A DNA stretch of 64,000 bases from contig CAXHJY010001162.1 of NCBI GenBank assembly GCA_964016885.1, positions 1 through 64,000 of the forward strand, given 5' to 3'. A program made the translations under genes and the position numbers. The number at the start of each line of letters is the position of its first letter. Positions within the stretch are counted from its first letter, which is position 1. Positions 10,019-54,557 of the stretch are shown in pieces. The DNA comes from Eledone cirrhosa. Its lineage: Eukaryota. The notes beneath the pieces were generated by a model, which was given only the letters and a program-made list of their open reading frames with translations, was not told the origin of the DNA and ran no database searches.

Positions 10019-10370
10019 AAACGGAAAAAATGAAACAAAATTTCATTTCCCACTCTTAGTACGGCTGTTACTTAAATATAAGCATGTACACGTACATACA
10101 TATATGTATACAGACGTACAGTAGTATGTATATATATATACATACATGCACACATATATATATGTACGTATGGATTCACCGAACATTTATTATAATGCTA
10201 GGTGTGTTTGTAAACAAACATCCCGTATTAAGCCGTGGTATCCAGCAACCATCGTTGCTCGTTTGTTCAACACTGACAAAGGAACGCTGTAGTAGTTTCA
10301 AACTTATTAGCTATCGTCAGCAACGTATACCTTCCTGCCAGATAGTTGAACGTATATACTTACCTTATGT
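10019..10370 (-). repeat. Hammerhead-containing dispersed repeat (other copies at 49774-50325 and 53731-53835)
   Basis: Highly similar to 49774-50135; flanked by (TA)n. Confidence 0.85.
10285..10325 (-). ncRNA. Type I hammerhead ribozyme motif
   Basis: Minus strand: CGTTG CTGACGA T AGCT AATA AGTT T GAAA CTACT A CAGCG; stem I is CGTTG/CAGCG. Confidence 0.65.
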
Positions 10371-11169
10371 AGGTGAAAATCCGGCCATGCTAAGATCTTA
10401 GTAATTATTAGATATATTCAATGTGACCAGAAAAGACAGTGGGATTAACAGAACACAAAAATAAAATAAAGAAACGTTGAGTATCTTCAGGAGATACTCA
10501 GTCTTTGCAAACTTCAGAAATTGTCCCTTTCAACTGTTATCTCCTTATCTCTGTCTATAAAGAGTAGATTTGGAGGTCAAAATCTATTTTTTTCTAAAGC
10601 TCTAGCCAACGATGAGCATTAATGTAGTCGTCCAATCTATTAGACATAGCAACCAAGTCTCCCTTACATCACATATTTAGAAAAGGACACATTGGATAAT
10701 AAAGTTACGAGTGCATTGGGCTTGGGCAAAAGACGGGTGGTGGTGGTAGTAGCCACGACTGGAACACCTTTTGTGATAGGTATATCTACACGGAAACCAT
10801 TAACTTAGGTTTAAACAACAACACTACCAAATGCACAATCTGAAAATAAGATAATAATAATAATAAAAATGACATTGAATACGATGGTCGCTATTGAAAT
10901 AATCGCAAAAAACAACAACAACAACAAAAAATGTATGGGAAATTTTTCTATTTTACCATTTTTGATAAATTAACTTCGAATAGTAGATATTAAAACGAAA
11001 ACGAAACTTAATCAACGCCATCCTCGCCCTTGTCTTTGTCCCTCTCAGATTATTACGGATGTTGTTTAAAAAGACAAACACTGCGCAAAACATTAAGAAT
11101 CGCCAGAAAACAACCAACAAACTAAACAATAAGCTGACAAAGGTCTCCCTCACTGCATTCTCTCCTGTG

Positions 11170-12020
11170 TCTGACATAGACAAGACTTTTCTTAAGATCC
11201 TTGCTGTGCCAAGAAATGCTATCTTCTGCATGTCCTGTAACCTTAGATCAATTCTGATTCTATTTACACAGTCCTCAAAACACCGATATACATCCTAATG
11301 CTCCAATCACCACTGGAATCACTAAAACCTTCTTGATCCCCCACAACTTTCCAACCTCCTCCTTAAGTGACTCATCCATCTCCATCTTTTCATGCTCTTT
11401 ATCCTTCACTTTACTATCTACTGGGACAGATATATCGATAATTTGGGCCTCTTTCTTCTTGTTTACAACTAAAATGTCTGGCTTTCTTACTTCACTCACT
11501 CTATTGCATTGAATGGCGAAGTCACAGAAAAGCTTCAATTCGTCATTCTCTAACAACCCCTCTTGGCTCTGCTCATACCATTTAGTTCCTCTAACAAATC
11601 CATATTTCTCAGATATCATCCATCTGGCAACATTATCATGTCATCATGACATCTTTTGTACTCTCACTGTGCCAACTCAAAACATTCGCTTACAATATGG
11701 CTGACCGTTTCCCCTTTTATTCCTCACATTCTACATAATAGTGATTTTATCGTTTTGTCAACATGATATATTTAATGATGTAGTTAATGTAGTTAGTTCA
11801 AAGAGCCTGCTCCTGGCGCTGCACACCAAAGCTTCGGTGTAGCCTTTCAGATCAGCATTTTTAAGTCACGACTAGCTCTTTTCATAATCAATACCTACTT
11901 TATCTCTCGTGCATGTTTATCCTTCCATCCTCTTTCAAGTTATTTTTCACTCTCTTCTTACATTCATTAGGTGCTACAGCATCAGCAGATTTCAGTGTGC
12001 CGAGGTCTCTTACTTATGAC
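11170..12020 (-). mobile_element. R4/Dong-clade non-LTR retrotransposon 3' fragment (zinc knuckle plus restriction-like endonuclease)
   Basis: ORFs 11275-11619 (KWY..LENDELKL, RKPDILVV, IIDISVP, KEHEK, IPVVIGALG) and 10953-11231 (QKIAFLGTARILRKVL). Confidence 0.85.
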
Positions 12021-12094
12021 ATGATGTTACCCACTACATTTTAAAGGAGCCAATCTTTATTTTTCTTCTTCTTCTTTGCCCACTTATTCCTGAG

Positions 12095-12423
12095 ATAAAT
12101 AAAGTACCAGTAACGCACTGGGTCGATTTAATCGACTTTTCCCTCCCTCCAAATTATTGGCCTTGTGCCTAAATCAGAAACCACTATTATCATTATAAGT
12201 ATGCAGAGTGATGGACGAGCAGCAGATTCGTTAGACCACCGAGTTCATCTTTCCGAGGTCGATAACGTTCCAGTTAAGCCATGGAATTAATATAATCGAC
12301 TTATCATCTTCTCCAAATTGCTGGTCTCATGTCTAAAGTAGAATCCATTATTATACTTTCTCAGGAATCGAACACACGACATTATGATCGTAAGTCCCTC
12401 ACCACTAGGCCACGCGCCTCCAC
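12095..12423. mobile_element. Cluster of SINE fragments (two family A pieces on +, one tRNA-like head on -)
   Basis: Core and tail matches; minus-strand head GGAGGCGCGTGGCCTAGTGG..GTTCGATTCC at 12355-12423. Confidence 0.7.
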
Positions 12424-12599
12424 AATGATGTAACTCAATAGTAATGACTTCAAGGTAATGAAATCAAAGTAATAAGCAATCATGACATAAACACACAGAT
12501 AGAAATGATCTCTTGTTAAGATGGAAATAAGATGTTTGCTTCAGGTAGAGACCAATTCAAAATTTAGAGTTTCTAAGTCACAATGAGAGGGATTAATGC

Positions 12600-12923
12600 T
12601 ATAATTTATCGGCCCTGAAAAGATGAAAAGCAAATTTTACCTCGGCGGGATTTGAAACCAGAATGCTGCTAGAACGAATGTCGTAAAGAATTTTGTCCGA
12701 CGGTCTAACAGTTCTGATAATCTTTTCTATATCACAAGAGAAAATAATTGTTTCTACTTTTGGCACAAGGCCAGCAATCACCCAGTGTATTACTGGTACT
12801 TTATTTTATCGACCCCGTAAGGATGAAAGGCTAAGTCAACCTCGGCGGGATTTGAACTCAGATCGTTAAGGGACGTAACTATGCTGGAAAGTATAGCGTC
12901 CGACCCTCTACCTCTACTGCCAA
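12600..12923 (-). mobile_element. Two adjacent SINE family A copies
   Basis: Reverse complements of the consensus at ~12600-12715 and ~12745-12923. Confidence 0.85.
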
Positions 12924-52238: not shown

Positions 52239-52300
52239 TATTTTATCTGATGAAAGCGTACTAAAGGTTTTGGTACCCTTGAAATATATATAATAGAATA
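52239..52300 (+). ncRNA. Type I hammerhead ribozyme motif, with an inverted copy of its 3' half at 51320-51397
   Basis: TATTTTAT CTGATGA AAGCGTACTAAA GGT TTTGGTACCCTT GAAA TATATAT A ATAGAATA. Confidence 0.75.
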
Positions 52301-53204
52301 AATATGGTTTTATAAATATAGTTTCCATTTATTTAATATCATTGAATATTTTACTCCAGAAAATTTGTCGAGTGCTCTGAATCAGATATAAACATTTATA
52401 TTTGTTGAATTACCAACAAATTGAATATCCCTTCTGCTTATATATATATAGAGGGAGAGCTAAGCTCTGTTTCCTGACCGCTGTATCACGTGACTGACTC
52501 CCCCTTCGCCTTTTCGAGATTCTATCTCGCGCATCACAGACGTGTTTTGAAACCCTTAATGAGGGTTTGATAAGTCGGCAGACCTCACAAAAACTCTACA
52601 TCTCTATGATGTAGTGTTTTTGCATAATATGCCACGAAACTACGTAGTCGGGGACTATAGAAGCAGTTTGGGTATGATATATCTTATTACTAATTATATC
52701 TAATGTTTCTTCTCTCTTCATAATGTATTATATATATATATATATATATATATATAACGTAAGGATCACATGCGCAGAAATGCTATAAAAAACAGTCTTT
52801 AAAACAGGGTGAGGACCATTAAAAGACGTAAAATGAAGTTGTCATCGACCGGTGTGAGGAAATGAAACTCATATTTCTCAGATATCGGTATAGTATATAT
52901 ATATATATATACATATAATTACAATCGTGACATAAACTCTGTTGCAATTATTCATCCTAAACTCGTCCTATGGACTGAGTGCCCTTACCCTTGGATATTT
53001 CTACCAAACTTTTACTACAGTATATATATATATATATATATATATATATATATAAATTTTGAGTATATGTTGGTTGTATACCAATACCTCAGTATGCAGA
53101 TTGGAGCACTCGACGAAGTGCGCAGGTTGGTTTGGTTACTCCGGAGTAATGTAAAATAAAATAAAATAAATAAGTCAAATATTTAAAATTTAGCTTCGTT
53201 TATT

Positions 53205-53259
53205 ACTGCTATATATATTTCGGTGACAGCCATCTTTCGCTGTGACCTCTTCAGGCAGT
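53205..53259 (-). ncRNA. Type I hammerhead ribozyme motif (same family as 27502)
   Basis: Minus strand ACTGC CTGAAGA GGTCACAGC GAAAGATG GCTGTCACC GAAA TATATAT A GCAGT. Confidence 0.78.
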
Positions 53260-53511
53260 CCGAATTAGTGTGGTAGAGACGAGTACACATGTTGTTGAGG
53301 TGTTTAACTTTGTCAATACTCTGATATATATATATATATATATATATATATATATATATATATATATATATATATATATTTAAGCAAAGAATCGCTGCTT
53401 TCACCCTTAACGGGATATTCTGAAACTCAACTATGGTTCTTATATATTTGATATATATTTATCCTTATCGATCCCTCTTTGGATTTTAGTCTTCACATTT
53501 ATTAGTATTAT

Positions 53512-53705
53512 TGCGGGGGTTTGGCAGTATCAGTAGAAGGTCGGACGCCATGCTTTGCAGCATAGAGTTACGCCCCTTTATGGTGTGAGTTCAAATCCCG
53601 CCGAGGTTCACTTTGCCTTTCATCCTTACGGGGTCGATAAAATAAAGTACCAGTAATGTACTGGGGTAATTGCTGGCCTTGTGCCAATAGTAGAAACAAC
53701 TATTA
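53512..53705 (+). mobile_element. SINE family A
   Basis: Consensus match. Confidence 0.9.
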
Positions 53706-54483
53706 CTATATATATATATAGCACATTCATATATATAAGTATGTACACGTACATACATATATGTATACAGACGTACAGTAGTATGTATATATATATACAT
53801 ACATGCACACATATATATATATATGTACGTATGGAATCATCATTATCATCACCACTACCATCATCATTAATTAACCACCGCTTTCTTTTTCAGATTTGCA
53901 TAGGATGGACGGGTTTCGGTGGTGCAACTTCATCGGTGGTCCTTTGTCATCGAATATACACAACAACAAAGATCATCGCAAAATACCGTGTGGGTCCAAT
54001 GTCGTTTTACAGGGAGGGGTAATAATTTTTACTTGATATACCTGAGATAATTTCTAGGCCGCCTGACAGAACAGTATGGCAAATATATATATATATGTGT
54101 GTATATATATATATGTGTGTGTGTATATATATATATATATATATATAACGAAGGAAATGTGGTAAGGAACCAGGTGGTCCATAACGTCCAGGTGGACCAT
54201 AACAGTCCAGAATTAGCCGTCGAAACGGCTTGAGCTCAGCCGTCGGGGTCCTACTCGTTCCTATATATATATATGTGTGTGTGTGTGTGTATATATATAT
54301 ATATATATATATATATATATATATATATATATATATATATATATATATATATATATATATATACATATATATACATATATATATTATATATATATATATA
54401 TATATATATATATATATATATATATATATATATATATATATATATATATATATATATTTCAAATCTTATATCCATAACATAGA

Positions 54484-54557
54484 TATTTCATCTGATGAAC
54501 GAACGAGACGTTTCTGTTAGAATCGTCTAATTTCGCGAAACCTTGGGTAATGGAATA
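54484..54557 (+). ncRNA. Type I hammerhead ribozyme motif
   Basis: TATTTCAT CTGATGA [ACGAACGAGACG..CGTCTAATTTCGC] GAAA CCTTGGG T A ATGGAATA. Confidence 0.7.

Follow-up and report, generated by a model that had tools for sequence, protein, structure and literature searches.

What kind of element strews hammerhead ribozyme motifs over animal DNA at a rate of ten in some 45 kb? The question is raised by the window analysed here, namely the first 64,000 nucleotides (forward strand) of contig CAXHJY010001162.1 in assembly GCA_964016885.1 of Eledone cirrhosa. The original prediction, made from the letters alone, had claimed at least ten type I hammerheads from about seven unrelated short repeats, and had read them as a very diverse population of non-autonomous retroelements. 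Our reading, which we consider highly probable, is that Penelope-like elements (PLEs) carry these type I hammerheads at their 3' ends. Five of the families are coding, a sixth (G) is likely so, and the seventh (A) is a unit without an open reading frame (ORF).

Exactly ten motifs were recovered in the window by a descriptor of the type I order (stem I - CUGRNGA - stem II - GAAA - stem III - UH - stem I), all ten of them predicted. Their cores start at 10320(-), 14453(+), 15110(+), 27507(+), 45815(-), 47043(+), 50079(-), 52247(+), 53254(-) and 54492(+), the positions first reported having been motif edges and not core starts. The core (CUGANGA/GAAA/UH) is exact, in type I order, in nine motifs, and that at 50079 reads CUGGCGA. 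Self-BLAST of the window sorted the motifs into seven families. Three are represented by pairs (A, 10320/50079; B, 27507/53254; D, 15110/45815) and four by single motifs (C, 14453; E, 47043; F, 52247; G, 54492), so that seven motifs belong to the coding families B to F, one to G and two to A. The predicted number of repeats therefore stands, whereas their unrelatedness is not complete, as B, E and F have a tail motif in common and the stem I sequences of E and F are similar. Stem III is a perfect palindrome in eight motifs, the exceptions being 10320, with one mismatch, and 54492, whose stem III is a hairpin (3 bp, 3-nt loop). In eight of the ten, AATAAA or ATTAAA is no more than 40 nt away from the cleavage site (at about +100 in family A), and a (TA)8 run lies within 400 nt of nine, against 23% of random positions; all three traits had rightly been ascribed to most of the motifs. 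Stem I of family D has only 2 bp, and one stem I pair is broken in the window copy at 47043.

The descriptor is loose, and matches arising by chance in AT-rich, microsatellite-rich DNA had to be weighed. In 200 dinucleotide shuffles (1-kb blocks) its loose form found a mean of 0.4 and a maximum of two motifs, against ten in the window, and its strict form (perfect stem III palindrome and stem I of at least 4 bp) found none, against five; the hit density is thus not reproduced by shuffling. Thirty decoys with scrambled cores, searched in the real window, gave none in the strict form (the real core, CUGANGA only, gives four) and zero to three in the loose form (real core, nine). The Rfam check proposed with the original prediction lent no support: no hammerhead is among the matches listed for the window (150 of 161) or for three family A loci (150 of 172), and the listed matches are microsatellite-driven microRNA noise. 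Several motifs also fold weakly as monomers. The hammerhead stems form in the B and G motifs, whereas the A, D, E and F motifs do not reach the full fold; cofolding gave a double-hammerhead fold for C, an intermolecular stem III for E, and other folds for A, B, D, F and G. An eleventh candidate at 43318(+), a hammerhead-like string with a 2-bp stem I, was rejected, its single weak relative having no core. Against these points stand not only the ten motifs versus 0.4 in the shuffled window, but also 45 strict motifs versus none with 30 decoy cores over 590 kb of genomic DNA, and chance is hardly credible as an explanation. In short, the ten hammerhead motifs are real and far above chance.

Each of the seven families is a dispersed repeat in its own 3.0-Gb genome. 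A first look gave 681 (A), 927 (B), 3062 (C), 1340 (D), 1056 (E), 3859 (F) and 2012 (G) candidates, which are lower bounds and not copy numbers. For each family the 30 top loci, picked by likeness to the window copy and reaching 1.5 kb upstream, were studied, a few loci being seen twice. Copies share from about 50 to more than 1500 nt of upstream sequence, but on the 3' side they end at fixed positions, next to (TA)n. In families B, C and E, a reverse transcriptase (RT) followed by an endonuclease (EN) of the GIY-YIG type at the C terminus is encoded on the motif strand. Locus L226 of family B is a nearly whole element with RWK, YRDD and CxCx5C motifs and an inverted 5'-truncated partner; besides RWK, it has EKT in the place of DKT, and the other copies are 5'-truncated before this N-terminal region. 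In family C, loci L211 and L212 encode an RT with YRDD, a CxCx5C linker and GIY-YIG, with a stop about 590 nt before the motif, and in family E, locus L221 has an open frame of 596 amino acids (aa) covering RT and EN. CxCx5C is found in 71 of 109 homologues of the family E protein, one homologue being from Hydra vulgaris. Only the EN side was reached in family F: the Hydra EN end occurs in L227, in L228 (where an internal (TA)n is interrupted by another insertion) and in the window itself at 51425-51641(+), which holds the last codons of the GIY-YIG ORF and the start of the 3' untranslated region (UTR) belonging to the motif at 52247. The translations of the Hydra-type families show the CxCx5C linker, no CCHH, and CxxC and CxH flanking E/N. 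By the motifs in their predicted proteins, families B, C, E and F agree with the published definition of Hydra-clade PLEs (PMC8557442). In family D, loci L219 and L216 encode an RT, a Cx4CxxC linker (of the pattern CX2-5CxxC) and, at the C terminus, GIY-YIG with CCHH, followed by a UTR of about 1.35 kb before the motif; on the same kind of evidence D is a PLE of the Neptune/Nematis type, these two clades not being told apart.

Because these five families run upstream into RT and/or GIY-YIG of their own, the window holds 5'-truncated 3' ends of coding PLEs, and this truncation is why B to F resemble short repeats. The Hydra-clade copies of B, C, E and F are as follows. Family B occupies 27170-27606(+), a short end with its hammerhead at 27502-27556 and predicted cleavage after 27551, and 53053-53327(-), with a long 3' end (about 100 nt of tail) and a hammerhead at 53259-53205. 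Family C is a 3' UTR end at 14174-14576(+), with a hammerhead at 14447-14559, an 82-nt stem II region and predicted cleavage after 14553. Family E lies at 46917-47235(+) and consists of a long end (46987-47235) and an inverted piece (46917-46982), with a hammerhead at 47035-47105 and predicted cleavage after 47097. The long end of family F is at 51967-52439(+), with a hammerhead at 52239-52300 and predicted cleavage after 52292. Family D has a 3' end at 14934-15230(+) that stops at (TA)n (minimal hammerhead 15108-15139, predicted cleavage after 15137) and a second copy at 45697-45891(-) with a hammerhead at 45817-45786. The short 3' end of family G is at 54458-54590(+), with its hammerhead at 54484-54557. 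A relative of G at locus L247, 77% identical in the motif region and with a similar tail, lies 1.3 kb behind a Hydra EN, and through this relative G likely has a PLE gene of its own, of the Hydra clade. A Hydra ORF in locus L233 was rejected as the gene of family G, since the element to which it belongs is a different one and stops some 2 kb short of the G motif. About 2.4 kb upstream of that motif, L233 also shows another Hydra family, which has a (TA)n end and a degenerate hammerhead of its own; elements are nested in one another's (TA)n flanks.

The presence of Penelope-like hammerheads, as predicted, is thus borne out by the RT and GIY-YIG sequences upstream in five families, whereas the non-autonomous nature ascribed to them fits family A and fails for B to F and for the relative of G. 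All seven families could still be short non-autonomous retrozymes moved by a separate PLE, for example the one whose remains lie at 17974-18800(+), and the window copies are indeed only 130-560 nt long, family A fits that description and no ORF is linked to G itself. Five families, however, are collinear with their own ORF, which refutes this explanation for B to F; with ORFs upstream and no short tandem unit, these do not fit the definition of a retrozyme. Direct tandems are rare outside A (none in 30 loci for B, C and F, one each for D and G, two for E). The remnant itself is an old, broken Hydra-like RT-linker segment (26% identity, E-value 7e-6 over 17974-18438), and a search of the genome found no close relative, its sole match being itself. 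Since it is decayed and without close relatives, its sequence marks it as an old orphan, and not, as had been suggested, the kind of partner that mobilises the ten motifs. That all families are retrozymes is therefore very improbable.

Family A differs from the others in that a single closed unit of 430 nt accounts for all of its 30 loci, each of which crosses the unit's junction. Animal non-LTR (non-long terminal repeat) retrozymes are defined as low-GC, ORF-less tandem units of 150-450 nt with one type I hammerhead per unit (PMC7229834; bioRxiv 10.64898/2026.07.22.740005), and family A has the sequence traits of this definition. The unit has a GC content of 0.36, its longest sense-strand ORF starting with methionine encodes 49 aa, it carries one hammerhead, and dimers and trimers occur. 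Inserts are often longer than one unit, tandem arrays were found in six of the 30 loci, and a diverged subfamily has tandem junctions too. Further points of likeness are a U-U at the base of stem II, a helix I extended past a conserved internal loop, and a strongly self-paired monomer (-124 kcal/mol, z -5.4, due partly to an internal microsatellite hairpin). With regard to the canonical loop 1/loop 2 tertiary contacts, the internal loop may resemble the loops of schistosome hammerheads. Within 1.5 kb upstream of the 30 loci no sense-strand PLE ORF was found, and PLE matches occur downstream or on the other strand in three of them; no parent with a pseudo-long terminal repeat was found either. 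Of the two window copies, 10011-10369(-) is 5'-truncated, has the long form of the 3' end and bears its hammerhead at 10326-10284, with cleavage predicted after 10290, and 49770-50326(-) exceeds one unit, running through unit positions 205-430 and then 1-327 (hammerhead 50085-50043, core CUGGCGA). Unlike animal non-LTR retrozymes, A exists mostly as dispersed, truncated inserts of one to three units, with the long and short ends of the Hydra families and with inversions in (TA)n. These ends and inversions resemble those of the Hydra families and not of D, which points to Hydra-clade elements as the mobiliser. Divergence within inserts is 4.8% for direct and 4.2% for inverted repeats, against 5.3% between inserts; these values are close and do not separate a circular from a linear multimeric template. 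The copies show no sense-strand A>G excess of the kind left by adenosine-to-inosine editing (188 A>G versus 262 T>C). Contigs of four runs (kind unrecorded) cover family A, with the core base at 50076 mostly intact, and have no bearing on RNA. Both subfamilies have an octamer, ATGCAAAT, some 90 nt upstream of their core (in the window at about 50168-50175, minus strand); newt satellite 2 reportedly uses a promoter of the small nuclear RNA type.

The inserts follow a common plan in the positions of their 3' ends. Relative to the predicted cleavage site, there are two such ends, approximately, in B (+55/+155), E (+56/+137), F (+57/+146), G (+35/about +95) and A (+219/+275), whereas family C has a short end near +57 and family D one end near +90. 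Motif-bearing head-to-head partners occur in 11 of the 30 loci of B, 4 of C, 12 of A, 16 of E, 8 of F and 8 of G, and in none of D. Inverted pairs consist of one long and one short end in 16 of 16 cases in B, 15 of 17 in E, 8 of 10 in F (both exceptions being one locus) and 12 of 18 in A; only the B query was unbiased in these counts, and for B the result under independence would have a probability, calculated by hand, of about 0.48^16 = 1e-5. Just past the short 3' end, the tails of B, E and F (L029, L122 and L166) start with TACTCC...GAGTG, of which A and G have looser look-alikes; this is possibly a recognition site of RT or EN, or a promoter element. Insertion in (TA)n, 5' truncation, an inverted partner and a one-sided tail occur in the Hydra-type families, and 5' truncation and inverted partners are among the PLE traits described by Craig et al. 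(PMC8557442), who also give tails of 30-40 bp, often at one end only. The outline of the one-sided tail is thus known; the parts of the published account available to us mention neither tails of the greater length seen here, nor a strict reciprocity, nor a common spacing of +55-57. Since the cleavage site lies 35-275 nt inside the 3' end of the inserts, the RNA copied there must have been uncleaved, multimeric or circular, and the template was not simply the linear 5' product of cleavage. This fits, without proving, the model of a circular or multimeric template proposed earlier (PMC4209133). Fold-back repeats of 100-260 bp without a ribozyme core also lie beside (TA)n in the window (13511-13762, 26795-27006, 27758-27860 and 54594-54811), and may represent the outermost 3' ends of other PLEs, joined head-to-head, or miniature inverted-repeat transposable elements.

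The abundance of such motifs was estimated from 59 evenly spaced 10-kb stretches (590 kb) of the genome, which contain 45 strict, 56 middle-form and 67 loose motifs, against 0.17 strict motifs in shuffles and none with the 30 decoy cores. This extrapolates to 228,000 strict motifs genome-wide (137,000-330,000; bootstrap over loci), or about one per 13,000 bases. The 56 middle-form motifs form 22 clusters at 80% identity and 28 at 90%, so that the large and very diverse population that had been predicted is borne out, with some 230,000 motifs estimated in at least 22 families. The window was rejected as a hotspot: the sample holds 4.9 strict motifs per 64 kb and the window five, which makes the window ordinary for this genome. 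Hydra-like coding sequence makes up 18.8 kb of the sample and is present in 13 of the 59 stretches. Published counts available to us are 126,247 for axolotl, more than 6,000 for coral, about 5,000 for mussel, about 9,000 for Xenopus and 235, by Rfam, for giant squid; the estimated 230,000 exceeds them all, the descriptors differing between studies. No published genome-wide count for an octopus or other cephalopod host was found in a search that missed most subscription papers.

Among the collected copies, the core is intact in 49 of 51 (B), 29 of 31 (C), 18 of 18 (D), 70 of 70 (E), 47 of 52 (F), 27 of 36 (G) and 40 of 63 (A). Covariation, another check proposed at the outset, was assessed for F (20 rows from 108 hits), G (the window copy and nine of 46 hits) and A (11 rows from 66 hits), the copies of B, C, D and E being too uniform. 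Paired cells amount to 93% in F, 90.5% in G and 95.6% in A, against 24-56% in controls with slid structures, and five of 21 pairs in F, six in G and one in A have changed on both sides; for G, four of 500 shuffles, which ignore relatedness, do as well on pairs. As read from these alignments, stems I, II and III pair and covary in the F, G and A subfamilies, with compensatory changes, relatedness being ignored in the controls for A as well.

What the ribozyme does is less evident, and two views have to be compared. According to the first, the GIY-YIG endonuclease would cut a (TA)n tract, and RT would prime downstream of the ribozyme, at an AT-rich site that is fixed, and would usually stop after a few hundred bases, so that the hammerhead would be the part most often left behind. 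In the Hydra-type families the second DNA end would prime at a second fixed site, giving the head-to-head pair of one long and one short copy. Tandem transcripts would then be cut down to unit length by the ribozyme, for the most part acting as a dimer formed via the palindromic stem III. Stated in full, the proposal has two parts. This genome may surpass every animal genome counted so far in hammerheads (about 2-3 x 10^5 motifs, driven by a large expansion of the Hydra clade), and its copies may reveal a rule of PLE integration: the RNA would have two fixed priming sites (in B, E and F at about +55 and +140-155 nt beyond the cleavage site), each serving to fill one of the two ends of a (TA)n cut, in two passes over the same 3' region, perhaps from two RNAs joined through their palindromic stem III. 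Family A would then be a retrozyme, with Hydra identified as its mobiliser by the signature of its insertions. We offer this combination tentatively. Against two RNAs joined as a dimer, inversions occur in family G although its stem III is a hairpin, and in Naiads, which lack hammerheads.

According to the second view, PLE 3' ends carry the motifs along as an inheritance, cleavage having been lost or being irrelevant to transposition, and the structure is instead a binding site for RT or EN, or a dimerisation site. This is compatible with the identity of the elements as PLEs, and differs on function alone. Every insert runs past the cleavage site, D retains only its 2-bp stem I, CUGGNGA replaces the usual core in 18 of 63 collected A copies (a set biased towards the query), and Naiads, again, spread without hammerheads (PMC8557442). 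Yet the core is kept in at least 22 sequence clusters while the stems change in compensation, which implies that, in active lineages, the catalytic fold is under selection, and we regard passengers as an unlikely account.

Several points weigh against our overall interpretation of the motifs as PLE hammerheads. Published PLE hammerheads cleave weakly in vitro (PMC4209133), and eight of nine dimers of Xenopus retrozymes remained uncleaved (bioRxiv 10.64898/2026.07.22.740005). Homologues for the covariation analysis were collected by BLAST with no structure filter, representatives were picked by hand and the structure was drawn from one member; in F, no shuffle of 500 was as high on cells, whereas 112 of 500 were as high on pairs, relatedness again being ignored. 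Pfam matched one of four PLE proteins, namely the RT of family D (RVT_1, E-value 1.5e-5, below its cut-off), so the clade calls rest on motifs. The upstream walk from family G, through low-complexity UTR, reached no ORF. Finally, that A likely borrows the enzymes of Hydra elements is drawn from its insertion style only.

The window contains other elements. At 10953-11640(-), about 600 nt upstream of a family A copy and not shared with the other A copies examined, there is a broken element, which we take to be the end of a non-LTR retrotransposon with a restriction-like endonuclease motif. A frame at 15878-16528(+) presumably corresponds to the N-terminal part of a Helitron Rep/helicase, and two remnants about 81% alike, at 24059-25842 and 55262-57349 (minus strand), are presumably RTE-like long interspersed elements (LINEs). 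A decayed LINE-like element (30.7-35.6 kb) has at its front a 414-bp inverted repeat (31333-31741/31899-32310) that is 98% identical. An 11-nt satellite at 610-3421 has 255 copies and a strong C-rich strand skew, and an abundant tRNA-type short interspersed element, which we assume to be cephalopod-like, occurs at 6351-6521 and in about 15 other places.

Judged from the sequences, the motifs are of known kinds, namely the hammerheads of Hydra and Neptune/Nematis PLEs, together with one new retrozyme-like family; in the literature, Hydra and the other canonical PLEs are all credited with hammerheads. Families B, C, E, F and the G-like one resemble the published Hydra-clade PLEs (PMC8557442) in the C-terminal GIY-YIG, the CxCx5C linker, the CxxC/CxH around E/N, RWK (seen in B), (TA)n targets, an inverted 5'-truncated partner, a tail at one end, and a 3' hammerhead with a short self-complementary stem III. 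One octopus family, Hydra-1_Obim from Octopus bimaculoides, is already published together with its hammerhead, whose hairpin stem III is like that of family G (File S2 of PMC8557442). Unlike the Hydra PLEs in the published material available to us, there are many young families here, 3' UTRs are 0.6-1.3 kb long, stem II is often long, and tails measure 56-100 nt instead of 30-40 bp. Family D resembles the Neptune/Nematis PLEs and their minimal hammerheads (PMC4209133) in its Cx4CxxC linker, the two cysteines inside GIY-YIG, an extra nucleotide before G10.1-C11.1 and a 4-nt palindromic stem III, and differs from them, as far as that source goes, in the 2-bp stem I of all copies viewed, the single 3' end and the lack of inverted partners.

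The analysis adds three things: how abundant the motifs are, the rule of reciprocal ends, and family A. The finding adds scale and a test bed to a known class of elements, in DNA for which no hammerhead is among the Rfam matches listed. With many young families that have fixed, reciprocal 3' ends, and an ORF-less family that shares their signature, the mechanism of PLE transposition, the role of the ribozyme and the identity of the enzyme that moves animal retrozymes become testable in Eledone cirrhosa.

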